From Opitutales bacterium (lineage in GTDB: Bacteria; Verrucomicrobiota; Verrucomicrobiia; Opitutales; UBA9783), in contig JAKSVZ010000002.1 in assembly GCA_024407725.1 (NCBI GenBank), forward strand, positions 7,403 to 71,402: a DNA stretch of 64,000 nucleotides. The letters are read 5' to 3'. The translations under genes and the position numbers were made by a program. Under the pieces are notes generated by a model, which was not told the DNA's origin, ran no database searches, and saw only the letters and a program-made list of their open reading frames with translations. Positions within the stretch are counted from its first letter, which is position 1. Every line of letters begins with the position of its first letter. Positions 1,124 through 48,825 of this stretch are shown here, piece by piece.

Positions 1124-1837
1124 TCAATAATTAAAATCCAGCTGAATCGATGTAATACCTTTTTCGCGGATTAACGAACGCAACTTCGCATCTTGTTCCT
1201 CAAAACCCGGCATGCAATGCACATGCGTTACCACCAACATATGCTTAATTTTTTTGTACAAACCAGTTTCAATCAGTTTAATCACAATCGGGTATTCGCA
1301 CCCTTCTACTGCCAGCTTTAAAACATCAATGTCCGTCTGCAAATCCTCAATAAAAGCACATAAATCGATACATTCAATATCGATGGTATCGCCCTTAAAG
1401 CTTTTACGTACGTTATAGATAGAGCTTTCTTCTGAAAAGAAAACATCGTATTTCCCATAAGACTCTAAATACAGTTTCGTATTCAACGGCTTATCTAAAA
1501 CTCCCTTTTGATACAAATGGACATTGGGATTCGACCCAAATTTCTTTTGTAATTCTGCGATACACTTGGGATTGGGTTCAAATCCGTAAACAACTGCACC
1601 CTTTTCGACAAACAATTGCGCTACTTGCCCTAAATTCATCCCGCAATCAATATAAATAGCTCCAGGTTTTAATGCCTGATACCAATCGGTGTTTCGGAGT
1701 TCTTCTAAGCATCGTTCTTCACGACCCGTAGAACCCATCCATTTAACCAACATGGCTCTAGCGCGCTCAGGGAAAGCCCATCGGACGCACGCACGAATAA
1801 CCCCGTTTTCATATAATTTACGCAAAAAATGCTTCAT
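1124..1837 (-). CDS. FkbM-family SAM-dependent methyltransferase
   Basis: 237-aa ORF with an ATG start. IYIDCGMNLGQVAQLFVEKGAVVYGFEPNP resembles the FkbM-type SAM-binding core. Looks AT-rich relative to the housekeeping genes. Confidence 0.7.
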   Translation of the reverse strand: MKHFLRKLYENGVIRACVRWAFPERARAMLVKWMGSTGREERCLEELRNTDWYQALKPGAIYIDCGMNLGQVAQLFVEKGAVVYGFEPNPKCIAELQKKFGSNPNVHLYQKGVLDKPLNTKLYLESYGKYDVFFSEESSIYNVRKSFKGDTIDIECIDLCAFIEDLQTDIDVLKLAVEGCEYPIVIKLIETGLYKKIKHMLVVTHVHCMPGFEEQDAKLRSLIREKGITSIQLDFNY

Positions 1838-1962: not shown

Positions 1963-4449
1963 ATGAAACAGCTGGTAATTGCTGAAAAACCAAGCGTTGC
2001 GAAAGATTTAGCGAAAGCGCTAGGGGGATTTAAGACTAATAAAGCCGGATATTTTGAGCGGGATGATATGATTTTATCTTCCGCCTTAGGACATTTGGTA
2101 GAGTTGTATTTACCCGGAGACATTGATAAAAAATATAAATTTTGGACACTCAAAAATTTGCCCATTTTACCGGAAAAATTTCAACTAAAGCCCATTGAAA
2201 AAAGCGCTGAGCGTTTCCATTTTTTAAAAAAGCTGATGGAGCGTTCGGATGTATCAGGGTTAATCAATGCCTGTGATGCCGGTCGCGAAGGGGAATTGAT
2301 TTTTGCGTATCTATGTGAATTGGCGAATTGTAAAAAACCCACGCAACGGTTATGGCTTTCATCCATGACGCCTGATGCCATCCGCGATGCCTTTGATCAT
2401 CTACGAAGCGCCGAAAGTATGCAGTCGTTAGAAGCTGCCGCCCGTTGCCGTTCTGAAGCGGATTGGTTGGTAGGAATCAATGGAACGCGTGCGGTTACCG
2501 GACGTATGATGGGGAATCGCTCAAAAGATGTTGCGAGCGTCGGTCGAGTGCAAACTCCTACCTTGGCACTGATTTGCGAACGCGAACAAGAAATTCGCGA
2601 CTTCAAACCCACTCCTTTTTGGACCCTAGAAGGAACGTTTAAGTTGCACTCAGGTACTTATACGGGTTGGCTTCAGCGCCCAAACTTTAAAAAGCAACAG
2701 GAAGCAGATCGCAGTGACCGTTTTTGGAAGGAATCGGAAACGCAAGCCTTAATAACCCAACTTAATAGCCTTAAGCCAACGGATTGGGTGGTTCAGGACA
2801 GCCAAAAACTATCCAAAACAGCTGCTCCGCGTTTGTTTGACTTAACCTCCTTGCAACGTACCTGCAACCAACGCTTTGGGTATTCGGCAAAATTTACGTT
2901 GGATATGGCGCAAAGTTTGTATGAAAAGCATAAAGCGCTCACATACCCCCGTACCGATTCGCGTGCCTTGCCTGAAGATTATGGACCAACCTGTATTAAC
3001 ATCCTTAAAAAATTAAGCGGGGCTTATGCACCTTTAGCAACTAAGGTGATTGAACATCATTGGGTCAATCCTCAGTCGAAAATCATTTTTAATAACAAAG
3101 CAATTTCAGACCACTTTGCTATTATTCCAACCGAAATTGCTCCCAAGGAGCTCAAGGAAAGCGAACGAAAGGTATACGATTGCGTTGTACGACGCTTTAT
3201 TGCTGCCTTTTTTCCACCTGCTGAATTTTCAACCACTACACGCTTAACCACTCAGGCTGAGTTAACCTTTAAAACAGAAGGGAAGATACTCGTTCAACCG
3301 GGGTGGTTAGAAGTAACCGGAAAGCCAGAATCAAAAGAAGAACTGCCTGCCTTAACCCCTGACGATCAGGAGCATGCAACCAGCGAGGCTTTTCAGGTTC
3401 AAGCAGACGAAACGCATCCACCCGCTCGCTTCACCGAAGCGACCTTGTTAACCAGCATGGAGCACGCAGGTCAACAAGTGGAAGATGCGGAATGGGCTGA
3501 AGCCATGAAAGAACGTGGATTAGGAACTCCTGCCACACGCGCTCAAATCATTGAGAATTTAATCGGAGTTCATTATCTCGAACGGGTTGAAAAGCATCTA
3601 TGTCCTACGCCTAAAGCTGAACAGCTATTAGCGTTTTTAAACCTAACGCAGGTGCAAGACTTAGCAAGTCCAACCCTTACGGGCGAATGGGAGTATCGGT
3701 TAAATCAGATCCAAGATGGATCTCTGAATCGTGAACAATTCATGGAAGATATAAAGACGATGACAAAGCAGCTCGTGGAAAAGATTACCACGTTCCAAGA
3801 CTATCAAAACACGCTAAAGGTGCTAGCTCCAACCGACGGGAAACCAATGATTGAAACCTTTCGGTCGTATCAATCCCAAGATGGCACCTTGGTGATTTAC
3901 AAAACCATCGGTAACCGCAAGTTATCGCTTGAAGAGCTCGGTACGCTGATCAACCAAAAGCGGATTGGACCCCTGACCGGCTTTACCTCTAAATTAGGCA
4001 AGCTTTATACGGCTTCGCTTGTTTTAGGCGATGATTATAAGGTGAAGTTTGAGTTTGAATCCAAAACCGAATCAGCTCCAATCGATTTAAGCCTATGCGA
4101 ATGGATCGGAACCTGCCCCCTCTGCGGAGCTAAGGTTTATGTGAATGACCAATCCTTGGTATGTGAACATTTTTTGGAAAAAACCTGCGGATTGCGCATC
4201 AAACGCACGATTTTGGACTATACCTTATCGAACGATCAGTTGGTATACTTGTTAAAAAATGGTAAAACAGAGCTGATTACTCGCTTTAAATCAAAACGAA
4301 CTGGAAAGTTTTTCTCAGCCTATTTGGTGCTCAACAAAAACGGTTCTCTCAGCTTTGAATTTGAGTCCAAAGCCACCAAGGCTACCGATGAAAAGCAGCC
4401 GAAAAAGGCGAAAAAAGCGAAAGCTAAAACAAAAACAAAATCAGCTTAA
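1963..4449 (+). CDS. topB: Type IA DNA topoisomerase, topoisomerase III-like, with C-terminal zinc-ribbon/repeat modules and a Lys-rich tail
   Basis: MKQLVIAEKPSVAKDLAKALGG is a Toprim N-terminus of the TopB type, so the start was moved to the ATG at 1963. A C-terminal module is duplicated (...YTASLVLGDDYKVKFEFES / ...FSAYLVLNKNGSLSFEFES). CPLCG / C..C cysteines are present. The tail reads KQPKKAKKAKAKTKTKSA. Confidence 0.85.
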   Translation: MKQLVIAEKPSVAKDLAKALGGFKTNKAGYFERDDMILSSALGHLVELYLPGDIDKKYKFWTLKNLPILPEKFQLKPIEKSAERFHFLKKLMERSDVSGLINACDAGREGELIFAYLCELANCKKPTQRLWLSSMTPDAIRDAFDHLRSAESMQSLEAAARCRSEADWLVGINGTRAVTGRMMGNRSKDVASVGRVQTPTLALICEREQEIRDFKPTPFWTLEGTFKLHSGTYTGWLQRPNFKKQQEADRSDRFWKESETQALITQLNSLKPTDWVVQDSQKLSKTAAPRLFDLTSLQRTCNQRFGYSAKFTLDMAQSLYEKHKALTYPRTDSRALPEDYGPTCINILKKLSGAYAPLATKVIEHHWVNPQSKIIFNNKAISDHFAIIPTEIAPKELKESERKVYDCVVRRFIAAFFPPAEFSTTTRLTTQAELTFKTEGKILVQPGWLEVTGKPESKEELPALTPDDQEHATSEAFQVQADETHPPARFTEATLLTSMEHAGQQVEDAEWAEAMKERGLGTPATRAQIIENLIGVHYLERVEKHLCPTPKAEQLLAFLNLTQVQDLASPTLTGEWEYRLNQIQDGSLNREQFMEDIKTMTKQLVEKITTFQDYQNTLKVLAPTDGKPMIETFRSYQSQDGTLVIYKTIGNRKLSLEELGTLINQKRIGPLTGFTSKLGKLYTASLVLGDDYKVKFEFESKTESAPIDLSLCEWIGTCPLCGAKVYVNDQSLVCEHFLEKTCGLRIKRTILDYTLSNDQLVYLLKNGKTELITRFKSKRTGKFFSAYLVLNKNGSLSFEFESKATKATDEKQPKKAKKAKAKTKTKSA

Positions 4450-5472
4450 CGCGGTTTTGATGATTTCCCAATAACGGCGCACTCTCCACGAATAATGGGG
4501 CTGGAAGAACGTACAATCTCCGCCTTCATAATTTACCAAACCGGTTGACATACAATCTTTGCAAAAATCAACCTTTTGATGCCATAATGGTAGATTTTCT
4601 TTCGTAACATCAAAAACGCTTCCAATGGGTTCTTGAATATTACAACAGGCTATAATTTCTCCCTTTGCGTTCATAGCCAATTGATGATCAAACCAATAAC
4701 AGGTTTTAGATGGTTTAAAGCATTTTGCATTTAATCCCATCAAAAGATCTTCAACGAGGCATTTTAAATATTCTTGTGGTAAAGTATTTTTAATATATTG
4801 CATCCAGATTTTAAAATCTAATGGAATTGCGTAATAAGGGATAAGCATAACGTTCAACGATTTTGCAAATTCGTAGGCCGCTGGAATTTCATGAATATTG
4901 AACTGATACACATGAAAACGAATCATAATTCGTCCGATACATCCTCGTTGTCTCAACGTGCGGACCAATGTACGAATATTGTTTTTGATGTGTTCGAAAT
5001 CAAAACGATGAATCCGATCGTAGGATGCCTGGCTAAAACCACACATGGAAATGAACATAGACATAATTGGGCTTGCATCAAAGGTGCTGGGCAACGATGG
5101 CAAAACATTCGCATTAGTGCTTAAATCCAACAAACATTGCTCTTCGTTTGCGATTTCAACAATTTTTGCAAACTCCGGGTGCAGTAGCGGTTCATACCAA
5201 ATATATAAAATTAATTCACTACCAACCGTTAAAAAACCTTTTGCCTTTAAATCCTTAATAATCCTTCGGAAAAGCTCTACATCCATGAATCGATTACCTT
5301 CGCAGACAACAGGCGCATGGTTACGGTTCGCCATTCCCGTTGGGCAAAAATAACATTGAGCGTTACATACCTGACTAATATCCATCAACACCTGATTCTT
5401 TGCTGAATCGGGTAGTTTGCGGTACGCATTAATGCGTTTAATCGTCGATAGGGTTTTTAGGATCTGGGGCAT
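4441..5472 (-). CDS. Radical SAM enzyme with a C-terminal Cys-rich (SPASM/twitch-like) domain, paralog A
   Basis: 343 aa with an ATG start. Has the CX3CX2C motif CNAQCYFC, then YEPLLHPEF. The C-terminal cysteines read ...GEIIACCNIQEPIG...FCKDCMSTG...C. Its 3' end overlaps the topB 3' end by 9 nt (convergent). Confidence 0.8.
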   Translation of the reverse strand: MPQILKTLSTIKRINAYRKLPDSAKNQVLMDISQVCNAQCYFCPTGMANRNHAPVVCEGNRFMDVELFRRIIKDLKAKGFLTVGSELILYIWYEPLLHPEFAKIVEIANEEQCLLDLSTNANVLPSLPSTFDASPIMSMFISMCGFSQASYDRIHRFDFEHIKNNIRTLVRTLRQRGCIGRIMIRFHVYQFNIHEIPAAYEFAKSLNVMLIPYYAIPLDFKIWMQYIKNTLPQEYLKCLVEDLLMGLNAKCFKPSKTCYWFDHQLAMNAKGEIIACCNIQEPIGSVFDVTKENLPLWHQKVDFCKDCMSTGLVNYEGGDCTFFQPHYSWRVRRYWEIIKTALS

Positions 5473-5512
5473 TTTTTAAAATGATATTAACATTATCGTT
5501 TGTATGTAAATT

Positions 5513-6571
5513 TTACAAAAAGTATGATAAAGATGGTAAATCGAATTCATCGTTGTCTTCACACTGTATACGCGGGACACCTGCTGCCTTGCAGGTTTTA
5601 CAGAATTCAGACGTAGCATAATATGCCTGCAAGCTTTCTGGGGTCATGTTAAATAAACTGCCTATAGGTTTTGGGAACATAACACAAACATTTAAATCCC
5701 CATCCGGATTAATACAGATGTCCGTAAAGGAACATGTATTTACCGGTCCTCTTGGATGGCTACCATGAAACAAATACTGAGACATTAGTGTTAGATAATC
5801 TACAGGTAACTCTCGATTGTGGTATTTTAAAGCTCGTTCTCCATCCACAAGAAAAGCCCATACGGGCCAAAATCCTATATGTAACGAGCGTGCAAATTCG
5901 GCTGCAGCTTTAATTTCATGTGTGTTAAATTGATAAACATGAAATATTAATGTAAAATATCCTATACAACCATGTGCACGAAATTCATGAACTACTGATG
6001 CAATATTTTTCTTACACTGTTCAAAATCACTCATAAAAATCTTATCGTAAGATTTTTGACTAAACCCACACATGCTCAGTCTAAAGAAGGAAACACAAGA
6101 TGCATCAAATTTATCAGAAAATTTAGGTAAGAAAATTCCATTAGTAGATAAAGAAATGTGACGTTTTTTACGAGTTATGTAATCCATAAACCGTTCGAAT
6201 TCCGGGTGCAGCATAGGTTCGCCCCAGTTATACAAAGCAACCATCTGGTTGTTGTTTGTATGCAAAAAATGCTGTTTTTCTAGGTAATCCAGGATTTTTT
6301 TAAAAAGTTCAAAATCCATAAAATGACCTTTTTCAGTCGGAGCACACCCGTTGCGATTTTTATTTCCGGTTGAACAAAATATACACTTAGAATTACATAC
6401 GTTGCCTATATCTATATAAAATCCTGTCTCTTTCAGGCATTGTCGATAAGACAAAACGCGTTTTAATGCTTCAAGTTTATTAGGGATAAACTTTGATGTG
6501 CTAATTGTTTTAAGAATCTCCCAGCGTTGAGCTAATTTCAAACATTGATCAATTCGAAATAACTTATTCAT
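5513..6571 (-). CDS. Radical SAM enzyme with a C-terminal Cys-rich (SPASM/twitch-like) domain, paralog B
   Basis: 352 aa. Has CNSKCIFC (CX3CX2C) and YNWGEPMLHPEF. CSFTDICINPDGDLNVC fits C-x10-G-x4-C and is followed by CKTC...C. Roughly 60% aa identity to paralog C by eye. Confidence 0.8.
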   Translation of the reverse strand: MNKLFRIDQCLKLAQRWEILKTISTSKFIPNKLEALKRVLSYRQCLKETGFYIDIGNVCNSKCIFCSTGNKNRNGCAPTEKGHFMDFELFKKILDYLEKQHFLHTNNNQMVALYNWGEPMLHPEFERFMDYITRKKRHISLSTNGIFLPKFSDKFDASCVSFFRLSMCGFSQKSYDKIFMSDFEQCKKNIASVVHEFRAHGCIGYFTLIFHVYQFNTHEIKAAAEFARSLHIGFWPVWAFLVDGERALKYHNRELPVDYLTLMSQYLFHGSHPRGPVNTCSFTDICINPDGDLNVCVMFPKPIGSLFNMTPESLQAYYATSEFCKTCKAAGVPRIQCEDNDEFDLPSLSYFL

Positions 6572-6769
6572 ATTATCCTAAACGTAACCTATTGTTTTTG
6601 TAAGTACAACTTATTTTATCAGCCATTGGTTTCTTAAAAAGAAAGATTCTGATATACTAAATTATAATTATAAATTTATGCTAGGTATTACCCAAACCCC
6701 GTTATTCAGCCTTTTAGGGCAAAAAATAGCGGAAGATCCGTTTCGGCTGATCAGTGCGGTTATTTTCTT
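6561..6769. repeat. Copy 1 of a 209-nt perfect direct repeat (partner at 7994-8202)
   Basis: Compared base by base: 6561-6769 is identical to 7994-8202 (offset 1433). It covers the first codons of the rSAM gene (minus strand), the whole divergent intergenic region and the first 30 codons plus 2 nt of the plus-strand membrane protein gene. Confidence 0.95.
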
Positions 6770-6812
6770 GTGTGCTATTTTACATATCTGTGCGACATTT
6801 ATCCGCACTTGA
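6678..6812 (+). pseudogene. Truncated 5' copy of the 8111-9463 membrane protein gene (44 codons plus stop)
   Basis: Reads MLGITQTPLFSLLGQKIAEDPFRLISAVIFLCAILH, identical to the first 36 aa of the 8111 ORF. It then diverges (ICATFIRT*) at the duplication junction. Too short for the ORF track. Confidence 0.8.
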
Positions 6813-6882
6813 TCATTTGCTGATTCGGGCAGTTTCCGATAAGCCTAGATGTGTTTAATAATTGATAAGATTTTTTAAGATC
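6793..6882 (-). pseudogene. Decayed 5' fragment of a radical-SAM gene related to paralog A
   Basis: 6808-6882 aligns by eye to 5391-5464, the codon ~4-27 region of paralog A, at about 75% nt identity. The start codon is lost (gatcttacttgt versus gatctggggcat) and the frame contains stops. Boundaries are approximate. Confidence 0.65.
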
Positions 6883-6942
6883 TTACTTGTGAGTAAATAA
6901 ATGAAATTGTTTTATGATCCACTTTATCTCAATTACAATCAT

Positions 6943-8004
6943 TTATAAATAATACTTCAAAGCACGTAAATCGAATTCGTCGTCATCTTCGCACAATAAA
7001 CGCGGAAACCCTGCAGCTTTGCATTCTGTGCAAAACGGATAAGAATCACACAACGCTTTCCAGGAATCAGGTGTCATATCAAAAATGCTACCCATAGACT
7101 CTCGAAACATACAACATCGATGTACTCCTCCTCGTGGATTAATACAGAGTTGTGCAAAATGACATGTGTTAACGGGACCACGTTTATGGCCTCCATAAAA
7201 CAAGTATTGAAACATTTTACTCAAATATTCTGTTGGTAATTCTCCTTTTAAAAACTGCATGCCTCGCTTTCCATCCACTTGATATGCCCAAACTGGCCAA
7301 AAATCTATATGTAGCGATCGTGCAAATTCAGCCGCTGCTTGAATTTCATGTGTATTAAATTGATAAACACAAAAAATCAAACCAAAACCCCCAATATATC
7401 CATGATGTGCACGAAGATTTTTAACAAGCGTTGCAATATTGCGTTTACATTGTTCAAAATCCGCCATGAAAATTTTATCGTATGAAGCCTGACTAAAGCC
7501 ACACATTGTGAATCTAATAAAACGAATAGAAGATGCATTAACATTTGCCGAAAATTTAGGAAGATAGATTCCATTGGTGGATAACACAATTTTTCGTTTC
7601 TCTTGCGTTAAATAATCAATAATACGCTCGAATTCCGGATGAAGTAAGGGTTCTCCCCAGTTATACAAAGAAATTCGTTGATCTTTTGGGGTATGTATAA
7701 AACCCACTTCTTTAAGATGAGTCCAAACCTGTTTAAAAAATTCAAAGTTCATAAAGCTGCCTCTTTCTTCAGAGGAGCATCCGTTGCGATTTTTAATGCC
7801 GGTCGAACAAAATAAACATTTCGAATTACACACGTCTCCGATATCAAGGAATATATTATCTACATCCATCTCATGCCGATAACATACTAACTGCTTGATA
7901 GCCTTTAGTTTATTTGGCACAAATTTTGAAGTACTGATCGTTTTTAAAATTTCTAAAGCTTGATATAGTTTTAGGTGCCTACGCAACCGAAACAACTTAT
8001 TCAT
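6943..8004 (-). CDS. Radical SAM enzyme with a C-terminal Cys-rich (SPASM/twitch-like) domain, paralog C
   Basis: 353 aa. Has CNSKCLFC and YNWGEPLLHPEF. C-terminal cysteines read CHFAQLCINPRGGVHRCC...CTECKAAG...C. Shares the acidic tail CEDDDEFDL with paralog B. Confidence 0.8.
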   Translation of the reverse strand: MNKLFRLRRHLKLYQALEILKTISTSKFVPNKLKAIKQLVCYRHEMDVDNIFLDIGDVCNSKCLFCSTGIKNRNGCSSEERGSFMNFEFFKQVWTHLKEVGFIHTPKDQRISLYNWGEPLLHPEFERIIDYLTQEKRKIVLSTNGIYLPKFSANVNASSIRFIRFTMCGFSQASYDKIFMADFEQCKRNIATLVKNLRAHHGYIGGFGLIFCVYQFNTHEIQAAAEFARSLHIDFWPVWAYQVDGKRGMQFLKGELPTEYLSKMFQYLFYGGHKRGPVNTCHFAQLCINPRGGVHRCCMFRESMGSIFDMTPDSWKALCDSYPFCTECKAAGFPRLLCEDDDEFDLRALKYYL

Positions 8005-8202
8005 ATTATCCTAAACGTAACCTATTGTTTTTGTAAGTACAACTTATTTTATCAGCCATTGGTTTCTTAAAAAGAAAGATTCTGATATACTAAATTATAA
8101 TTATAAATTTATGCTAGGTATTACCCAAACCCCGTTATTCAGCCTTTTAGGGCAAAAAATAGCGGAAGATCCGTTTCGGCTGATCAGTGCGGTTATTTTC
8201 TT
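7994..8202. repeat. Copy 2 of the 209-nt perfect direct repeat (partner at 6561-6769)
   Basis: Identical to 6561-6769. Here it sits at the intact rSAM-C / membrane-gene divergent junction. Confidence 0.95.
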
Positions 8203-9463
8203 ATGCGCCATCCTGCATACCTTTTTCTGCAGTAAATTCAGCACAAAAGCGCGGCAATTGGAGCAGGCGAACTGTGATAGCTACAAAGTATCCATTTTCC
8301 ATTGGCTTGGAGAAGTAGAGGTAATTTTTGGATTATGGCTCATTCCGCTTTTATTGAGCTTCATTTGCTTCAAAGGCTGGAATGCCAGTGTTCAGTATTT
8401 TTCCACGCGGCATTATACCGAACCCATCTTTGTGTGCATCATCATGATGATAGCAGCTACACGTCCTATTTTATACGTAGCAGAACGTTTTATCAATTTA
8501 GCGGTTAACACCCTAGGGGGAGAACGTCCATCCACTTGGTGGTTTTGCATTCTAACCATTGCCCCTTTGTTTGGCTCTCTGATTACCGAACCCGCTGCGA
8601 TGACGATTGCTGCCCTGCTCTTGTCGCATAAGGTTTTTGTTTACAAACCGAACGCTTGGTTTTCGTACGCGACCCTAGGCTTGCTGTTCGTTAATGTATC
8701 CATTGGGGGAACTCTAACCCACTTTGCCGCCCCTCCCATCCTGATGGTAGCCAACACGTGGCATTGGACCACCGCTTATGTATTCTCGCATTTTGGGATT
8801 AAAACAATCATGAGCGTTATCATCTCAAGCGTACTGTACTTTTTACTCTTTGCCCCTCACTTGCATACGCTCAATAAGCGCGCAAAAATGGAAACGCTAT
8901 CCTCCCAGAATGAACAAAGACTACCGCTGGGAATTATTCTAACCCATGTCGGCTTTTTAACCTGGACGGTGCTCAATGCACACCATACGGCTTTGGTTGT
9001 ATTCGGAGGATTGCTATTTTTGATGGTAGCTCAAATCTTTAAAAAGTATCAATCCCCCATGGCGCTCAAAGAATCTCTGTTGGTGGGATGTTTCTTGGCA
9101 GGGCTTGTAACACACGGCGGACTGCAAGAATGGTGGATCGAGGCTGTTTTATCACGGCTCAATGATGCCTGTTTGTTCTACGGATCGGTTATTTTAACCT
9201 CTTTTAATGATAATGCATCGTTAACCTATCTAGCATCCTTGGTTCCAGCGTTTGCCGATCATTTTCAATTGCAATCAGCGGTGGTTAGCGGCGCAGTGAT
9301 TGGTGGGGGATTAACGGTTATTGCCAATGCACCTAATCCAGCTGGACAATCCATCTTATCCAAGTTTTTTGCCCATAACATCGTAAAGCCCCTACCTTTG
9401 TGCTTAGGTGCTTTATTGCCCACCTGCGTCACGATTTATATCTTCCGCTATTTAATGGGATAG
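8111..9463 (+). CDS. Polytopic inner-membrane protein, probable ion/solute transporter (family not identified with confidence)
   Basis: 450-aa ORF with an ATG start. About 11-12 hydrophobic segments are visible in the translation. It resembles uncharacterised putative cation antiporter-like proteins, but I cannot verify the family. Confidence 0.75.
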   Translation: MLGITQTPLFSLLGQKIAEDPFRLISAVIFLCAILHTFFCSKFSTKARQLEQANCDSYKVSIFHWLGEVEVIFGLWLIPLLLSFICFKGWNASVQYFSTRHYTEPIFVCIIMMIAATRPILYVAERFINLAVNTLGGERPSTWWFCILTIAPLFGSLITEPAAMTIAALLLSHKVFVYKPNAWFSYATLGLLFVNVSIGGTLTHFAAPPILMVANTWHWTTAYVFSHFGIKTIMSVIISSVLYFLLFAPHLHTLNKRAKMETLSSQNEQRLPLGIILTHVGFLTWTVLNAHHTALVVFGGLLFLMVAQIFKKYQSPMALKESLLVGCFLAGLVTHGGLQEWWIEAVLSRLNDACLFYGSVILTSFNDNASLTYLASLVPAFADHFQLQSAVVSGAVIGGGLTVIANAPNPAGQSILSKFFAHNIVKPLPLCLGALLPTCVTIYIFRYLMG

Positions 9464-9567
9464 GCTTCTAAAAAAGCAAAACACAAAAAAATTTCGCTTT
9501 TTTAGCGACAGTAAGCCTAAGGGTTATATACTGTTTTTGTCCTTCTAATTTAGCATGAAATGAATTT

Positions 9568-9599
9568 AAAAGTAAGGATGCTTGGGATCCTTTACTTTT
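9568..9599. terminator. Candidate bidirectional intrinsic terminator downstream of the membrane protein gene
   Basis: aaaagtaaggat / gcttggg / atcctttactttt forms a 12-bp stem with one bulged T and a 7-nt loop. A-run and T-run arms flank it. It lies about 100 nt after the stop at 9463. Confidence 0.45.
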
Positions 9600-9602
9600 G
9601 AG

Positions 9603-9631
9603 TTGACATTAAGATGAAAAACAGATTAAAT
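9603..9631 (+). promoter_or_regulatory. Sigma70-like promoter with no ORF downstream
   Basis: TTGACA (9603-9608), an exact 17-nt spacer, then TTAAAT (9626-9631). Confidence 0.4.
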
Positions 9632-10143
9632 TTATCTTAATTTGTATACCATATGCAGTGGACAAAATTATTTTATCCCAACAAGATTTTTTGTCAAGCT
9701 CTTTATAAGAGGGGGATGCTTTGGGGGGACTTTCCCTATTTGTTTTTTATCTGCTAAACGGATCCATTGTACATCACCGAGAAAACACTGATGAAATACT
9801 CTTTGTGCCTCTGTTTTTTATCGACATGGATTAACAATTACCGTATGATACGGTATTGCCTTTTCTGATTCTGCTTTTCCAAGAAAAAGTTTATTTCAAA
9901 AAAACCATCCTGTCGAGCCTTTTTAAGATAAATCCTAAAAGGATCCTATGGGTTGATTGGGATTTTCCGTCTTTATAAATGAAGGTTAAAACAAGCAAAC
10001 TTACTGTTTTCGCTTGATAGCCCTGTAAAAAAGCAACCGCTCCCAAAGAGGGCATGGGGCATTATAGGTTTATCGTTTAAAAAACCAATTTTTTTAGAAA
10101 AGGCTCATAGTAAAAAGAGAACCTATGAACTTTCGCTTTTTTA

Positions 10144-10172
10144 TTGACATAGGCACATAGGTTGAATAAAAT
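10144..10172 (+). promoter_or_regulatory. Sigma70-like promoter with no ORF downstream
   Basis: TTGACA (10144-10149), an exact 17-nt spacer, then TAAAAT (10167-10172). Confidence 0.5.
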
Positions 10173-10228
10173 TACCTATGTAAGGAAGCAATCCTCCAAT
10201 TAATGGAATTTTTGTCCCTCAAGCATTC

Positions 10229-10270
10229 ATAGGCTTACAGCAGGTGATAATTGGTAAATTTATCATGTTC
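10229..10270 (+). repeat. Non-coding element related to the 21868-21948 and 22251-22332 elements (copy U3)
   Basis: ataggcttac (10229-10238) and gtgataat (10244-10251) are exact matches to 22287-22296 and 22297-22304. A related atcatgttc / atcatctcc tail follows. Confidence 0.45.
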
Positions 10271-10363
10271 TTCTTGGTCTTTTTTAGGAGATTCTCATAA
10301 AGATTTTAACCAATCCTTATCGAACAGTCAAGGACAAAAGCGGAGCAAGAACCCTAACGAACA

Positions 10364-10402
10364 TTAAAAAATATCGCCTAGAGGGAAACCTTTAGGCGAT
10401 AT
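10364..10402 (-). terminator. Rho-independent terminator of ald (possibly bidirectional)
   Basis: atatcgcctagagg-GAAA-cctttaggcgatat forms a 14-bp stem (one G-U pair) with a GAAA tetraloop. On the minus strand it is followed by TTTTTT. It lies 24 nt downstream of the ald stop at 10426. Confidence 0.7.
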
Positions 10403-10425
10403 TCATAGGTTTTAATAGCTTATGC

Positions 10426-21763: not shown

Positions 21764-21768
21764 AAGCC

Positions 21769-21797
21769 TTGACACTCTAACCGTTTAGAGTTACCAT
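21769..21797 (+). promoter_or_regulatory. Sigma70-like promoter with no ORF downstream (overlaps a weak hairpin that could instead terminate the acetyltransferase gene)
   Basis: TTGACA (21769-21774), a 17-nt spacer, then TACCAT (21792-21797). The spacer contains ctctaa-ccgt-ttagag. Confidence 0.35.
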
Positions 21798-21867
21798 TAT
21801 TTTTGATGGGTGAAACTGGTTGCGGGAAGACATTTTTGATCGGCCATATGGCTGTCCTTCAAGAAAC

Positions 21868-21948
21868 TCGGCTGTTTTTTAGGAACCAGATGGCGTCACT
21901 TGATAGCTTCACGTAATAATAGACTATCAACACTTACGATCATCTCGT
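21868..21948 (+). repeat. Non-coding element, copy U1 (paralog of 22251-22332)
   Basis: Hand alignment shows tcggctgtt identical in both copies. The core ggcgtcacttgatagcttcacgtaataatagactatcaacacttacgatcatctc matches U2 at about 43 of 58 positions. Stops occur in all frames. Confidence 0.55.
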
Positions 21949-22186
21949 GCACCCAAATAGTAAATGAAGGACGTTAAATAAAATATAGTTCCATCATTCA
22001 TAGGTTGGCATGTTCTTTCAAGAAATATTGTACAACCTATCCCCTCCTAGAGTCAAGCCAAAAGCCAAAACTATATAATTTAAATACTAAACACTGCTTG
22101 TTAAAATGTCTTTAAAGAAATGAAAAAAGCAGCAATAAACAGCACAAAATTCCCCGAATCTGTACTGCTTTGATTCGATAAAAATC

Positions 22187-22215
22187 TTGACACAACAAAA
22201 CTTTATTCCTATGAT
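22187..22215 (+). promoter_or_regulatory. Sigma70-like promoter with no ORF downstream
   Basis: TTGACA (22187-22192), an exact 17-nt spacer, then TATGAT (22210-22215). Confidence 0.5.
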
Positions 22216-22250
22216 TTAAGTAGGATGTAGTAAAAGTTTTTTATTACTCA

Positions 22251-22332
22251 TCGGCTGTTCTTCAATAGACTAGAGGGCGTTACCTGATAGGCTTACGTGA
22301 TAATAAGCTGCTAACACTCACAATCATCTCCT
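22251..22332 (+). repeat. Non-coding element, copy U2 (paralog of 21868-21948; shares a core with 10229-10270)
   Basis: See U1. It lies about 35 nt downstream of the predicted TSS of the 22187 promoter. Confidence 0.55.
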
Positions 22333-22497
22333 CTGGCGCTCTGCAACTAAAAGCAGGATCACTAGAAGCAAGAAACGTTAGTGTTGATTCATCCATTTCG
22401 CTTCTACCAAACAGAATTTAACTCATTATTGCCTGAGCGTCAATAAAAAAGATAAGGATGTTCCTTTCCTTTTTTATCTCTTAAAATGCTTTTATCC

Positions 22498-22526
22498 TTG
22501 ACCCTTGGCCAAATAAAGAATATAAT
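22498..22526 (+). promoter_or_regulatory. Sigma70-like promoter pointing at the 3' end of pnp (convergent)
   Basis: TTGACC (22498-22503), an exact 17-nt spacer, then TATAAT (22521-22526). No ORF follows. Confidence 0.5.
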
Positions 22527-22758
22527 TGTTCTTAAGCGAACAAATGGCTCCAATATTCAAAATCTTTTGCACGCAAACCAAATTTTTTGATTTATCGCAT
22601 CTGCCAGCTACCATAGCAAAACATTAAAATACACGCTACAACTTAACGTTTTGACGTTAACTTTAACTTGAGCATTTTCTGGCGAAGCATGCTTGCTTAT
22701 TTTAAGCGCTTTCGCCATCGAATGTCAATTACAACGTAAAGGCTTTTGCCAATCCTTA

Positions 22759-24897
22759 TTATTTACTTGGCTGTTGTTGCATAGCTGCCTTACGGCTTAA
22801 GCGGACACGACCTTTTTCATCAATCCCAACACAGGTAACTACCATCGTATCACCAAGAGCGCATACATCGCTTGGATGATTGACTCGGCAATCAGATAAT
22901 TCGGATACATGCACCAATCCTTCCTGTCCGGGCAAGCATTCCACGAACACACCAAAATCCTTAATGGATTTAACGATGGCTTGGTAGGTTTTCCCAACTT
23001 CGATTTTTTGATCGAGCGCTTGGATTTGCTCAACTACCTTCTTGAGCATTTCCTCATCGCAGGCATAGATTGAAACTTTTCCAGAATTATCTTCGCAGAT
23101 ATCGATTTGGCAGCCGGTTGATTCCGTTAAACGTTTAATGTTCTTACCGCCAGGACCGATTAAAGCACCGATCTTGTCTGGAGAAATCATAACGGTTGCA
23201 ATGCGTGGAGCAAAGGGGCTGGTAGACGTACGCGGTTGCGCCAAGGCGCCTTTCATAACTTCCAAAATACGCGCTCTTGCTTGAGTATTTTGATGAATCG
23301 CTTCCTCCATGATTTCTAGAGGCAATCCAGCAATCTTCAAATCCAATTGAAATCCGGTAATTCCCTTGTCGGTTCCACAGATCTTAAAATCCATATCGCC
23401 GTAATGGTCTTCATCACCGATGATATCCGTTAACAGCTTATAACGCGCGATAGAGCCCGTTTGATCCATTTCGGTTACCAACCCAATGGATATACCCGAT
23501 ACAGGGGCTAAAATGGGCACTCCTGCGTCCATCAACGCTAAGGTACCACCGCAAACGGATGCCATGGAGGTTGAACCGTTTGAGCTCATGATATCCGAAA
23601 CCACACGAATGGCATAAGGGAAATCAGTTTCCGATGGAATAACGGGCAACAACGAACGTTCTGCTAAGGCACCATGTCCTACTTCACGGCGGCTAAGGAA
23701 TCCAAAGCGTCCTGTTTCTCCTGTTGAATAAGGCGGGAAGTTGTAATGAAGGATAAACGATTTCGATTGTGCTCCTCCGGTTAATCCATCCAAATCCTGA
23801 GCATCGCTATTAGCGCCCAAGGTTACGCTCACCAAGGCTTGGGTTTGACCCCGTTCGAACACAGCAGACCCATGCACGCGCTTCGGCAAAACATCAACCG
23901 CACAGGATAATTTACGGATTTCATCCAACGAACGGCCATCTAAGCGCTGATCTTGGTCTAAAACTGCCTTACGGCACACGTCCTCTTGCAAAGCTTCAAA
24001 AGCAATCGATACGGCTTCTTTTGCCTTTTCTTCATCGTCGAACCATTGCTCATCAATCGCCATTTTGAACGCGGACTGTTTGAGCAAGCGTACCCCTTCA
24101 TCAGCCGCTGAACGATCGGCATTGAACCAAGTGTTGCGCAAGGGTTCCGTAAAACTGGCTCTGCACCATTCCATGGCTTCTGTTGTAGCTACATGAGGAA
24201 CGTACGCACTTTTTACACGTCCTACTTGGCGCGCCAACGCTTCTTGGGCGTCTAAAATTGGCTGAATGGCCTGTTGAGCCTTATGTAAAGCCTCAATAAA
24301 ACGTGCTTCCGGCAATTGATCCGCGCATCCTTCAATCATCAAGGCACGGTCTCGGGTACCCACATAGATTAAATCCAAATCCGAATCGAATTGCTGATTG
24401 TTGGTTGGGTTAATAACAAACTCGCCATTGACCTGAGCAATCCGCACGCAACCAATGGGTCCGCCCCAAGGGATATCAGAACACATCAACGCCGCAGAAG
24501 CTCCATTGACCATCAAAATATCCGATTCATTCTTCAAATCGGTCGATAAGAGCAAACCAATAATTTGCACTTCATTTAAAAAGTCACTTGGAAATAAAGG
24601 ACGTAGCGGACGATCGCACAAACGCGAGGTTAAAATTTCTTTTTCGGTTGGCTTTCCTTCGCGCTTTATATAGCCGCCTGGGAAACGACCGGCAGCAGAA
24701 AATTTTTCGCGATAATCAACGGTTAAAGGGAAGAAATCCTGATCTGGAGCCACTTCCTTGGCCATGGTAGCGCTTACAAACACTACCGTATCTCCCGATT
24801 GTACCATCACCGAACCGTTGGCTCGTTGCGCTAACGTTCCGGTCGAAAACGACAATGGCATCCCCTCAACCTCAACGGTATATTTTTGCTTCAGCAT
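22759..24897 (-). CDS. pnp: Polynucleotide phosphorylase
   Basis: 712 aa with two RNase PH-like halves (SSNGSTSMASVCGGTLALMDAGVP). C-terminal KH (GPGGKNIKRL) and S1 (GVFVECLPGQEGLVHVSEL) domains are present. Confidence 0.95.
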   Translation of the reverse strand: MLKQKYTVEVEGMPLSFSTGTLAQRANGSVMVQSGDTVVFVSATMAKEVAPDQDFFPLTVDYREKFSAAGRFPGGYIKREGKPTEKEILTSRLCDRPLRPLFPSDFLNEVQIIGLLLSTDLKNESDILMVNGASAALMCSDIPWGGPIGCVRIAQVNGEFVINPTNNQQFDSDLDLIYVGTRDRALMIEGCADQLPEARFIEALHKAQQAIQPILDAQEALARQVGRVKSAYVPHVATTEAMEWCRASFTEPLRNTWFNADRSAADEGVRLLKQSAFKMAIDEQWFDDEEKAKEAVSIAFEALQEDVCRKAVLDQDQRLDGRSLDEIRKLSCAVDVLPKRVHGSAVFERGQTQALVSVTLGANSDAQDLDGLTGGAQSKSFILHYNFPPYSTGETGRFGFLSRREVGHGALAERSLLPVIPSETDFPYAIRVVSDIMSSNGSTSMASVCGGTLALMDAGVPILAPVSGISIGLVTEMDQTGSIARYKLLTDIIGDEDHYGDMDFKICGTDKGITGFQLDLKIAGLPLEIMEEAIHQNTQARARILEVMKGALAQPRTSTSPFAPRIATVMISPDKIGALIGPGGKNIKRLTESTGCQIDICEDNSGKVSIYACDEEMLKKVVEQIQALDQKIEVGKTYQAIVKSIKDFGVFVECLPGQEGLVHVSELSDCRVNHPSDVCALGDTMVVTCVGIDEKGRVRLSRKAAMQQQPSK

Positions 24898-47062: not shown

Positions 47063-47113
47063 GAACTTTATTTATGGAACTTTATTTATGGAACTTTATT
47101 TATGGAACTTTAT
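47063..47113 (+). repeat. 14-bp tandem repeat (gaactttatttatg) x3 plus a 9-nt partial unit, containing the OMP start codon
   Basis: Units at 47063-47076, 47077-47090 and 47091-47104, with a partial unit at 47105-47113. Each unit carries an ATG (47074, 47088, 47102) and only the last opens the long ORF. Confidence 0.95.
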
Positions 47114-47860
47114 AAAAAATTATTGTTTGTAAGTGGGCTGTGTCTAGCAAACTTTTATGCGTTTGCAGATGCGGAGAGCGAATACGATGATTTGGAAGCA
47201 ATTTCTGAGAATAGCTTTTCAGAAGTTGAAGATACAGAGTCTTCCTGTTGGTTAGCGGAGTATCCAACCTACCTCGATCTAAACATAGGACTTGGGTTTG
47301 GCAATAAATTTAACTATGCCAAAAATGCTGAAGAATTGAAATTAACGGGAGGTTCTCCTAAAGCAAAAGTAATAACGGGGCCAATGGGTTTAGAAATAGG
47401 AAAAATCATCAATGAGTGGCGCTTTGGTGTTGAAGCAATATTCATTTATGGAAAGACCGGAAACTTTGAGCTGAAAATAAATGGCAAAGAATATGTAATT
47501 AAAAACACTATATGGGGAGGTAGTTTAATGGGAAACGTTTATTATGATATTCCTTTACACACACATATAGCTTGGTATATGGGAGGTGGCTTGGGTTTTG
47601 ACTATTTAAAAATAAAAATGAAAAAAGAAGAATTGGGGCTCCACGGTAAAAGTTTCTGGGCTCCTGTTTGCCAATTTCGAATAGGCTTAGCTTTTTATTA
47701 CGAAAGTTATATCATGAGTGCTGGCTATCGCATTCGTCATATTTTCCAAAACCTTAAGATCGATAATTCAATAAAATATTATACTGATAAAAAGTTAAAC
47801 AGTGAATGGAAATCTCCAACTATTCATGTTCTTGAATGCGCATTCGCATGGACGTTTTAA
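47102..47860 (+). CDS. Small outer-membrane beta-barrel protein, family 2 paralog a
   Basis: 252 aa. Signal peptide ...LCLANFYAFADA, an acidic N-terminal stretch, Gly/aromatic-rich strand pattern and C-terminal ...CAFAWTF. Confidence 0.75.
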   Translation: MELYKKLLFVSGLCLANFYAFADAESEYDDLEAISENSFSEVEDTESSCWLAEYPTYLDLNIGLGFGNKFNYAKNAEELKLTGGSPKAKVITGPMGLEIGKIINEWRFGVEAIFIYGKTGNFELKINGKEYVIKNTIWGGSLMGNVYYDIPLHTHIAWYMGGGLGFDYLKIKMKKEELGLHGKSFWAPVCQFRIGLAFYYESYIMSAGYRIRHIFQNLKIDNSIKYYTDKKLNSEWKSPTIHVLECAFAWTF

Positions 47861-48051: not shown

Positions 48052-48825
48052 ATGAGATGCTACAAAAAACAACTTTTGGCAATAAGCATTTGTTTAATGA
48101 ATTTTTATGCTTTTGCAGATACAACAGAATACAACGATACAGAAGCGATTTCTGAAGAAAGTATTTCAGAAGTCGATGATACGCCCTCCCGTTTAAGTTG
48201 GTTCATCGATGCTCCAACTTATTTTCAGATGCACGTCGCTCGTGGTCGTGCAAGCGGATTTGAATATTGCAAAAATATTCAAGAAATTAATCCACGATTA
48301 AACTGTAATTCTAAAGTACTAACTGATCTTGATTGGGTCGGAATAGAAGTAGGAAAAGTTTTTGGTAATTGGCGTTTTGGGCTAGAAGGAACGTACTATA
48401 AAGGAGACATGCGGGATGCTTATCTCGATATGGGTCGAGATGAAGCCTACAGAATAGACGCTAAAACGCGGGGATGGGGTATAATAGGTAATGTTTATTA
48501 CACTATTCCACTCACAGCCAATAATGCTTTTCTTTGCATTTTGGGCGTTGGCTTGGGACTTGAGGATCGAAAAATCGAAGCAAACAGCTCCATGCCACTA
48601 AAATTACACGATCATGTCCTTAGAGGATTAGCTTACCAATTGTATGTTGGGCTAGCCTATAACTTTGACGATTATCATGCTTTGAGTATGGGGTATCGCT
48701 TCCATCATTTTACCAAAAATATGGAGTGGAATTCTGCAAGTGAGGGGAATGACCATATAATTTCTCAGTGGGACTCACCAAAGAGTCATATGTTTGAATG
48801 TGCCTTTACCTGTCTGTTTGAATAA
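48052..48825 (+). CDS. Small outer-membrane beta-barrel protein, family 2 paralog b
   Basis: 257 aa. Signal peptide ...ICLMNFYAFADT. Shares an acidic EAISE.S.SEV.DT segment and a ...ECAFTCLFE end with paralog a. Confidence 0.75.
   Translation: MRCYKKQLLAISICLMNFYAFADTTEYNDTEAISEESISEVDDTPSRLSWFIDAPTYFQMHVARGRASGFEYCKNIQEINPRLNCNSKVLTDLDWVGIEVGKVFGNWRFGLEGTYYKGDMRDAYLDMGRDEAYRIDAKTRGWGIIGNVYYTIPLTANNAFLCILGVGLGLEDRKIEANSSMPLKLHDHVLRGLAYQLYVGLAYNFDDYHALSMGYRFHHFTKNMEWNSASEGNDHIISQWDSPKSHMFECAFTCLFE

Follow-up and report, generated by a model that had tools for sequence, protein, structure and literature searches.

Background

The sugar-acting radical S-adenosylmethionine (SAM) enzymes considered here, BtrN, BlsE, DesII, AprD4 and NeoN, belong to antibiotic pathways, and to our knowledge no characterised radical SAM enzyme takes part in the assembly of cell-surface polysaccharides. 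Members of the superfamily that carry a full SPASM domain hold two auxiliary clusters with a seven-cysteine motif (Cx9-15Gx4C ... Cx2Cx5Cx3C ... C). The present analysis concerns a tandem array of three radical SAM genes, named paralogs A, B and C, within a 64,000-nt stretch of DNA from a rumen Opitutales metagenome-assembled genome (MAG); the whole of that stretch is referred to as the window. A twitch domain is a shortened form of the SPASM domain with one auxiliary cluster, as exemplified by BtrN, in which the auxiliary cluster has four cysteine ligands (PMC9012708). This fully Cys-ligated auxiliary [4Fe-4S] cluster serves a two-electron oxidation of a carbohydrate-like substrate (PMC9012708).

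A, B and C belong to an uncharacterised family within this known kind of enzyme. The explanation favoured here combines a twitch-type radical SAM family, a sugar substrate and a locus history of a resident gene, tandem duplication and gene conversion; taken as a whole, it has roughly an even chance of being right.

Radical SAM core and predicted auxiliary-cluster domain

The three genes share one strand:

4441-5472, minus strand: radical SAM paralog A, 343 amino acids (aa), CNAQCYFC, PF04055 at 29.6 bits
5513-6571, minus strand: radical SAM paralog B, 352 aa, CNSKCIFC, PF04055 at 44.6 bits
6943-8004, minus strand: radical SAM paralog C, 353 aa, CNSKCLFC, PF04055 at 33.0 bits

All three reach the gathering score of the Pfam Radical SAM model PF04055 (29.5), A barely so, in agreement with an initial annotation of this DNA that had described three same-strand open reading frames (ORFs) of 343, 352 and 353 aa with CX3CX2C motifs; coordinates and cysteine strings agree as well. 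Its estimate of about 60% identity between B and C is close to the measured 61% (aa), whereas its figure of about 30% for A against B or C was too low, the measured value being 39-40%. A GEP(L/M)LHPEF motif had been read in each protein; this holds for B and C, which carry WGEP(M/L)LHPEF, but not for A, which has WYEPLLHPEF, with 'YEP' in place of 'GEP'. The N-terminal CX3CX2C cysteines are kept in 157-158 of 170 diverse homologs, the remainder being gaps. An AlphaFold2 (AF2) model of B, with a predicted local distance difference test score (pLDDT) of 85.5 and a predicted template-modelling score (pTM) of 0.85, shows a partial TIM-barrel fold resembling solved radical SAM enzymes. Foldseek matched it to 69 PDB chains (E<=1e-3), of which those listed are radical SAM enzymes, headed by BlsE, SuiB, SkfB, anSME, DesII and viperin (E 1e-8 to 1e-6, template-modelling (TM) score ~0.5, 10-17% identity). 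Searched against PDB sequences, the family profile matches CteB, GDGT-MAS, BtrN and BlsE, only via the N-terminal core. By class, then, A, B and C are very probably radical SAM enzymes.

Placement in a curated subfamily had been considered at the outset, and Pfam, NCBIfam and PADLOC scans put A, B and C in none. In an NCBIfam scan of A, B, C and 10 diverse family members, no subfamily cut-off was reached. A, B and C match TIGR04317 best, with 63-69 bits where the cut-off is 380; this model is also the top NCBIfam match for all family members tested (42-75 bits), and MoaA, spiro-SPASM, ScmF, viperin, BlsE, AlbA and other NCBIfam models score below it. Prokaryotic viperins are likewise a poor fit, at 22-32 bits for the PADLOC pVip models and 20-28 bits for the NCBIfam viperin model (cut-off 180).

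The C-terminal domain looks twitch-like, with one auxiliary cluster and no full SPASM domain. In all three proteins it begins with Cx9-15Gx4C, specifically Cx12Gx4C in A and Cx10Gx4C in B and C, and continues with CxxC ~27 residues further on; in B, the ligand pattern is C280-x10-G-x4-C296 followed by C324xxC327. In B numbering and over the same 170 homologs, C280 is kept in 165, C296 in 160, C297 in 152, and C324 and C327 in 164 each. The initial annotation had allowed that the C-terminal cysteines might lack conservation in homologs, yet each is kept in at least 152 and at most 165 of them. The twitch assignment is made because the C..C(C)..CxxC pattern is conserved and the second half of the seven-cysteine motif is absent: the first half is there, the second is cut to CxxC, and the conserved cysteines of A, B and C are enough for one [4Fe-4S] cluster. 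Of the SPASM or twitch Fe-S domain suggested initially, the auxiliary-cluster type therefore stands, and a full SPASM domain does not, given the one-cluster cysteine pattern and the lack of a PF13186 match. Codon 297 of B (5683-5685) encodes Val, whereas A, C and 152 of the 170 family members have Cys there, the second of a 'CC' pair, so that Val297 possibly marks a functional difference between the duplicates.

A family found among glycan genes

A word-indexed search returned only 26 relatives. With an exhaustive profile search, the number of clusters (50% identity) was 967 at E<=1e-30 and rose to 13,681 at E<=1e-10, and a scan of one genome per species gave 531 family loci, whose hosts are nearly all anaerobes, including Clostridia, Desulfobacterota, Planctomycetota, Nitrospirota, Omnitrophota, Methanoculleus and Methanospirillum. 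The family motifs (NWGEPxLHP, LSTN, SMxGFSQxSY, HVYQFNxxE and five C-terminal cysteines) are present in A, B and C; besides the YEP of A and the Val297 of B, the exception is FCVYQFN in C. The family profile, which was built including A, B and C, scores them at 385-440 bits.

For the neighbourhoods, ORFs were called in 76 loci, neighbours within 8 kb were clustered, and representatives were annotated with Pfam. The recurrent neighbours are:

GT2 glycosyltransferase: 47/76 loci
DegT aminotransferase: 19/76 loci
dTDP-glucose 4,6-dehydratase/epimerase: 17/76 loci
Wzt (with Wzt_C): 15/76 loci
RmlC-like: 13/76 loci
Rhamnosyl-O-methyltransferase/CmcI: 13/76 loci
Wzm: 11/76 loci
B12-dependent radical SAM: 10/76 loci
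WbsX: 7/76 loci
Flagellin: 6/76 loci

The neighbourhood comparison to which the initial annotation had pointed thus reveals glycan genes beside 50 of the 66 non-verrucomicrobial loci, with two or more such neighbours in 43. Individual cases are of the same kind. A CmcI-type methyltransferase gene lies 13-22 bp upstream of the radical SAM gene in loci L015 and L025, and precomputed annotation places member P0014 between a Wzm/Wzt-type ABC transporter and a GT2/GT1 giant, and members P0013 and P0011 amid WbsX, GT2, TylF/CmcI methyltransferase and RmlC/D genes. A true member on Lawsonia intracellularis plasmid 1 (283 bits) is surrounded by GT2, class I methyltransferase, HAD and GHMP-kinase genes, and members occur in Clostridium botulinum ATCC 25763, the host of L015, and in C. 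tertium (L049), where two flagellin genes flank the radical SAM gene. The contexts include O-antigen-type, flagellin-glycosylation and S-layer-type loci. The association extends to fusions, which take the forms GT2-rSAM, rSAM-GT2x2, WbsX-methyltransferase-TPR-rSAM and rSAM-WbsX (rSAM, radical SAM domain); in multi-domain members, the radical SAM domain is also fused to a nucleotide-diphospho-sugar transferase or to class I methyltransferases.

Separately, glycan loci L018, L029, L042, L064 and L085 each hold four to six related but distinct radical SAM genes, tandem or interspersed, in Desulfobacter, Desulfobacterales, Geobacteraceae, Methanospirillum and Brachyspira. Glycan clusters of this multi-radical-SAM type seem to recur as an unstudied theme.

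History of the array

The MAG UBA3869 offers a collinear locus (L010) with hppA, a topoisomerase gene, one radical SAM gene, an antiporter gene, a short-chain dehydrogenase gene found there in addition, ald, two M16 peptidase genes and trx, and the window proteins are 91-97% identical to their counterparts there. The features on which the reconstruction draws are:

4513-4854, minus strand: hyper-divergent segment of A, residues 207-320, comprising the bridging region and the twitch domain
~5338-6770: tandem duplication unit 1, period 1,433 bp
6771-8203: tandem duplication unit 2, period 1,433 bp
6561-6769: 209-bp exact repeat, copy 1 (partner 7994-8202)
7994-8202: 209-bp exact repeat, copy 2, with the functional divergent promoter and the 5' end of the antiporter-like gene
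6678-6785, plus strand: antiporter pseudogene stub, 36 residues identical to the start of the gene at 8111-9463
6782-6874, minus strand: A-type radical SAM pseudogene stub, a 5' end with an in-frame stop (tblastn of the A ortholog from L010, E = 5e-7)

The initial annotation saw a triplication; the locus instead has two histories, with A as a resident ortholog and B and C as a pair from local tandem duplication. The single radical SAM gene of UBA3869 (L010:9989-11026) is the ortholog of A, with 79% aa identity and a ratio of nonsynonymous to synonymous divergence (dN/dS) of 0.15, and a neighbour-joining tree groups A with L010 and P0007. A is evidently the resident ancestral copy.

All direct-repeat families in the array are spaced 1,433 bp apart, and each unit contains the 5' end of an A-type gene, one B/C-type gene, a divergent promoter region and antiporter codons 1 to ~31-36. 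B and C are best read as the products of one tandem duplication, with endpoints near codon 36 of the antiporter gene and codon 38 of A and the B/C ancestor in between, because the 1,433-bp period is accompanied by two stubs in the spacer between B and C. The ORF at 6678-6812 starts MLGITQTPLFSLLGQKIAEDPFRLISAVIFLCAILH, as does that at 8111-9463, and tblastn with the L010 antiporter matches 6693-6800; the A-type stub translates as KILSIIKHI*AYRKLPESANDQVRINVAQIC. The duplication is old, since B and C are saturated in synonymous divergence (dN 0.28, dS 2.28, dN/dS 0.12), and the coding parts of the two units are 55-85% identical in windowed comparison, again with dS saturated. The 209-bp exact repeat, which spans B/C codons 1-4, the divergent intergenic region in full and antiporter codons 1-31, has sharp edges, and the five antiporter codons beyond it differ synonymously only. 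This identity is most simply explained by a recent gene conversion of the promoter cassette, and C could be deleted or amplified if the two copies recombined. The low dN/dS values (0.12 for B against C, 0.15 for A against its ortholog) indicate that purifying selection acts on all three paralogs and that they are functional.

The most probable sequence of events would thus begin with A as the ancestral gene and a B/C ancestor between A and the antiporter-like gene, followed by the duplication that would have left two stubs and by a later conversion of the promoter cassette.

Synonymous divergence between the window and UBA3869 is uneven, with dS at 0.26-0.41 for the topoisomerase, M16 pair and ald genes, 0.66 for the antiporter-like gene (91% identical to its ortholog) and 0.97 for A. 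Within A, identity to the UBA3869 ortholog is 92% over residues 1-206 (dS 0.67) and 91% over residues 321-343, but falls to 52% in aa and 60% in nucleotides over residues 207-320, where dS is saturated; no donor of this segment was found among the sampled paralogs. A looks like a mosaic or recombinant in its C-terminal module. Across all paralogs, conservation is lowest in this C-terminal half, as would suit a module that determines specificity. The raised divergence of A and the antiporter-like gene relative to the outer flanks is reminiscent of hitch-hiking around serotype loci. The divergence of A and the antiporter-like gene, the presence-absence pattern of B, C and a nearby FkbM-family gene, and the AT shift of the array together resemble variable surface-structure loci, and the array may be a fast-diverging, strain-variable cassette of the sort that would serve surface-structure diversification.

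Orphan copies in rumen Verrucomicrobia

The nearest relatives of A, B and C (38-42% identity) all come from rumen Opitutales or Verrucomicrobia MAGs and form a single clade, within which B and C are a branch of their own; among 5.8 billion proteins, none is more than 43% identical to B or C. The genes of this clade are multi-copy per genome and occupy three recurrent kinds of housekeeping site. The first, from the topoisomerase to the antiporter-like gene, is that of the window and L010; the second runs from a PD-(D/E)XK nuclease or MutY-like gene to a type II/IV secretion ATPase gene (L003, L006, L007, L009, L012 and L013); and the third runs from type III secretion export genes (SctS/T/U) to dnaN (L008, L011 and L014). 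In three of the six loci at the second site, an ArnA-like formyltransferase gene lies directly downstream of the radical SAM gene, the sole sugar-type hint inside the clade; it scores 123 bits with ArnA and generic formyltransferase models against 81 bits with Fmt:

L006, 11175-12212: ArnA-like formyltransferase
L009, 63-827: ArnA-like formyltransferase
L012, 11079-12119: ArnA-like formyltransferase

The export genes adjoining the copies at the third site (L008 6694-8949, L011 259-2491, L014 1110-2009) are of the injectisome type, with SctT at 187.5 bits on TIGR01401 (cut-off 163) together with SctS- and SctU-like genes, and UBA3869 carries a second tandem array of three deeply diverged radical SAM copies at its type III secretion site. 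At the second site, the MutY-like HhH-GPD gene is intact in L003 and L012 and is not one ORF in L006 (~8855-9913), L007 (~2802-4030) and L013 (~6038-7124), which may reflect frameshifts or simply a gene-caller artefact. A conserved region of ~800 nt upstream of the radical SAM genes of lineage 1 had suggested a structured RNA, since apparent ORFs were conserved in every frame, but the alignment shows this HhH-GPD (MutY-like) gene, and Rfam returned nothing.

Proposed function and competing explanations

A sugar or glycan substrate for A, B and C is about evenly poised between holding and failing. It is proposed because the rest of the family lies in glycan clusters or is fused to glycosyltransferases, and it would extend to this locus by inference from the family; in this way a glycan, named as one fallback by the initial annotation, becomes the favoured option. 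The substrate would most likely be a residue of a nascent cell-surface glycan or a nucleotide- or lipid-linked precursor. The [4Fe-4S] cluster of the CX3CX2C motif would cleave SAM to a 5'-deoxyadenosyl radical, as superfamily chemistry predicts from the motif and fold observed here, and this radical would take a hydrogen from the substrate. Four to five of C280, C296, C297, C324 and C327 are predicted to hold one auxiliary [4Fe-4S] cluster, which might accept the second electron, as proposed for BtrN. The reaction itself, oxidation or epimerisation, can be assigned only tentatively, and either assignment is doubtful. Speculatively, the enzyme would most likely oxidise a sugar C-H/C-OH to a keto group; epimerisation, with Cys297 giving the hydrogen atom back, would be the alternative, and B, without Cys297, may differ in outcome.

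Several observations weigh against a glycan-modifying twitch family acting at this locus. No glycosyltransferase or sugar-nucleotide gene lies within 8 kb of any of the 10 verrucomicrobial loci, the window included, and the glycan role reaches the window locus through homology, at ~30-34% identity and with shared motifs. A two-helix N-terminal extension of ~45 residues is confined to the verrucomicrobial clade and absent in glycan-cluster members, and could point to a different substrate or partner. The SPASM model PF13186 has no match in A, B or C at E<=1, the Pfam model finding distant family members only (P0026 at 49 bits, P0017 at 22 bits). Full-text literature searches, moreover, returned no paper on the family and no experimental study of any member. 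Mentions of 'radical SAM' in the Xanthomonas literature proved unrelated or unverifiable.

The orphan position of all verrucomicrobial copies at housekeeping sites, in several copies per genome, would suit trans-acting protein maturases of the anSME or metalloenzyme-maturase kind with targets encoded elsewhere, and so would the appearance of anSME among the top structural matches and of a maturase model, TIGR04317, as the best though weak curated match (63-75 bits). Such maturases are nevertheless unlikely here: scores stay far below all curated cut-offs (380 for TIGR04317), no anSME model is among the NCBIfam matches listed at E<=1 (every match of A, the top 25 of B and of C), the conserved cysteines suffice for one auxiliary cluster only, and the rest of the family is linked to glycosyltransferases and to no target protein. 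Enzymes of a small molecule, cofactor or lipid, in a clade that has departed from an ancestral glycan role, are similarly improbable. The motifs NWGEPxLHP, SMxGFSQxSY and HVYQFNxxE and the five cysteines are all retained in A, B and C, and no conserved lipid or cofactor genes lie nearby, even though the missing local glycan context, the clade's own N-terminal extension and profile relatives that include GDGT-MAS/Tes and HpnH (lipid), MoaA and viperin (nucleotide) would be in keeping with such a departure.

Maturation of a ribosomally synthesised and post-translationally modified peptide (RiPP) or of a cofactor was the default of the initial annotation, which had itself found no precursor ORF. 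SPASM/twitch radical SAM enzymes often mature peptides (PMC9012708), SuiB, SkfB and CteB are among the structural or sequence matches, and two M16 peptidases encoded ~4 kb away might act as leader peptidases on a precursor near or elsewhere. The default does not stand up well, for a search for a conserved small ORF beside the 10 verrucomicrobial loci found none, the sole repeated one lying inside the 209-bp repeat, and Pfam and NCBIfam detect no RiPP recognition element (RRE) or other peptide-binding domain in A, B or C. The genes for the M16 pair, alanine dehydrogenase and thioredoxin are housekeeping genes in synteny with UBA3869, where their identity is 92-94% overall and 92-93% for the M16 pair alone, and they are missing beside the other paralogs, and the neighbours of the family are glycan genes, with no conserved peptidase or transporter sets; RiPP maturases are accordingly quite improbable. 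That B and C might be alleles of two strains, joined in assembly via the 209-bp sequence, is suggested by the MAG source and by the oddity of a perfect repeat amid highly diverged sequence. This would be very surprising because a chimera would not create decayed stubs, and the spacer with its A-type stub, in-frame stop and stub-stub junction unique in the locus bears the signature of an old tandem duplication. Of these explanations, a twitch-type family with a sugar substrate is the one preferred here.

Flanking genes and base composition

The flanking genes named in the initial annotation, FkbM, topoisomerase, a divergent membrane protein, an M16 pair and trxA, are all borne out:

1124-1837, minus strand: FkbM-family methyltransferase (PF05050 46 bits; TIGR01444 61.6 bits, cut-off 37.7)
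8111-9463, plus strand: PF07399 (Na_H_antiport_3), putative Na+/H+ antiporter, 523.6 bits, divergent to the radical SAM genes

The others are a bacterial type IA topoisomerase, alanine dehydrogenase, two M16-type peptidases and thioredoxin (TIGR01068 99.4 bits, cut-off 96.8). The FkbM gene had been associated with the array, but proves to be a variable gene and no conserved partner: its interior (1181-1788) is missing in UBA3869 while both gene ends still align, which indicates a deletion there. In this single comparison, the window has FkbM, B and C, all of which UBA3869 lacks. In L026 and L029, too, FkbM-like genes occur no more than 8 kb from family members, and the FkbM gene is possibly a variable partner of the radical SAM genes at this locus.

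The low GC content noted initially is confirmed, strongly for B and C and less so for A. Whole-gene GC is 0.385 in A, 0.352 in B and 0.363 in C, against 0.444±0.033 over 46 window genes, and GC at third codon positions (GC3) is 0.375, 0.289 and 0.285, against 0.435±0.049 (z = -1.2, -3.0 and -3.0). A mobile-element origin of B and C was considered and set aside, with no phage matches and only 8 viral-contig loci. In a consensus scan for promoters, the array showed fewer promoter-like sites than did shuffled sequence, and no terminator in it was convincing.

The only other strongly GC3-poor window genes, 47102-47860 and 48052-48825 (0.31 and 0.32), are 40%-identical paralogs of outer-membrane beta-barrel type, the second matching the OMP_b-brl Pfam model, and are probably variable surface proteins. 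Beside the antiporter-like gene, 9464-10425 (962 bp, 34% GC) has no ORF of at least 60 aa and gave no result in Rfam/tRNA scans or in blastx against all neighbour proteins; at the same position UBA3869 has the short-chain dehydrogenase gene (L010 7696-8535). Upstream of the PNPase gene, ~1 kb of low GC (21764-22758; GC = 0.376 in 22001-23000) has no ORF of at least 60 aa and no Rfam match at the gathering threshold. Over the whole window, Rfam and tRNA scans report two tRNAs only.

Comparison with known systems

The family context points to an unrecognised, oxygen-independent step of glycan tailoring, and the members in Lawsonia intracellularis, Clostridium botulinum and C. tertium, pathogens that have been cultured or sequenced, make the question testable. 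The window adds an evolutionary case, with a strain-variable cassette, a mosaic gene, two stubs and a freshly homogenised promoter repeat. More broadly, and as a tentative proposal that may well prove wrong, the family could be the first dedicated radical SAM class with which anaerobes tailor cell-surface polysaccharides or protein-linked glycans, functionalising sugar C-H bonds on or beside a glycosyltransferase; rumen Opitutales might have expanded it to at least five dispersed, rapidly recombining copies per genome as a toolkit for surface-glycan diversification, through swapping of the C-terminal module and copy-number change via the 209-bp repeats.

The peptide and protein maturases anSME, SuiB, SkfB, CteB and AlbA share the overall fold and the Cx9-15Gx4C start of the C-terminal domain with the family, but have the full seven-cysteine SPASM motif and two auxiliary clusters, and most come with an RRE and an adjacent precursor. 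TIGR04317 describes a radical SAM maturase of a tungsten-cofactor oxidoreductase, whereas no tungsten-enzyme genes lie near A, B and C, and its cut-off of 380 stands well apart from their scores. Among enzymes that act on sugars, BlsE (cytosylglucuronate decarboxylase, PDB 7VOB) is the best structural match (E = 1.5e-8, TM 0.50-0.53), and DesII (TDP-sugar deaminase/dehydrogenase, PDB 8HZV) the sixth. As radical SAM enzymes, both take a hydrogen from a sugar that is nucleotide-linked or part of a nucleoside; unlike the family, they serve secondary-metabolite pathways, and they share only 10-14% identity with A, B and C, the NCBIfam BlsE model giving ~19-21 bits against a cut-off of 400.

BtrN (2-deoxy-scyllo-inosamine dehydrogenase of butirosin biosynthesis, PDB 4M7T) resembles the family in joining a radical SAM core to a one-cluster twitch domain, which in the family is predicted. 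The family profile matches it at E = 1e-8, Foldseek ranks it 43rd, and its ligand spacing, C-x15-17-C ... CxxC, is presumably the same as that of the family. The two differ in that sequence similarity is limited to the N-terminal ~90 residues and in length (~250 aa against 343-353 aa); BtrN also lacks HVYQFNxxE, GFSQxSY and the extra conserved cysteine, and belongs to an antibiotic pathway, whereas the family belongs to polysaccharide loci.

A parallel in gene arrangement comes from Brachyspira hyodysenteriae, whose plasmid pBHWA1 carries six tandem radical SAM paralogs in an rfb/glycosyltransferase locus, unlike the glycan-free array of the window. The strain-variable presence of these genes correlates with colonisation and with virulence or pathogenic potential (PMC4267127). 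With 58-85 bits against the family profile, the pBHWA1 proteins and the family of A, B and C are related but distinct.

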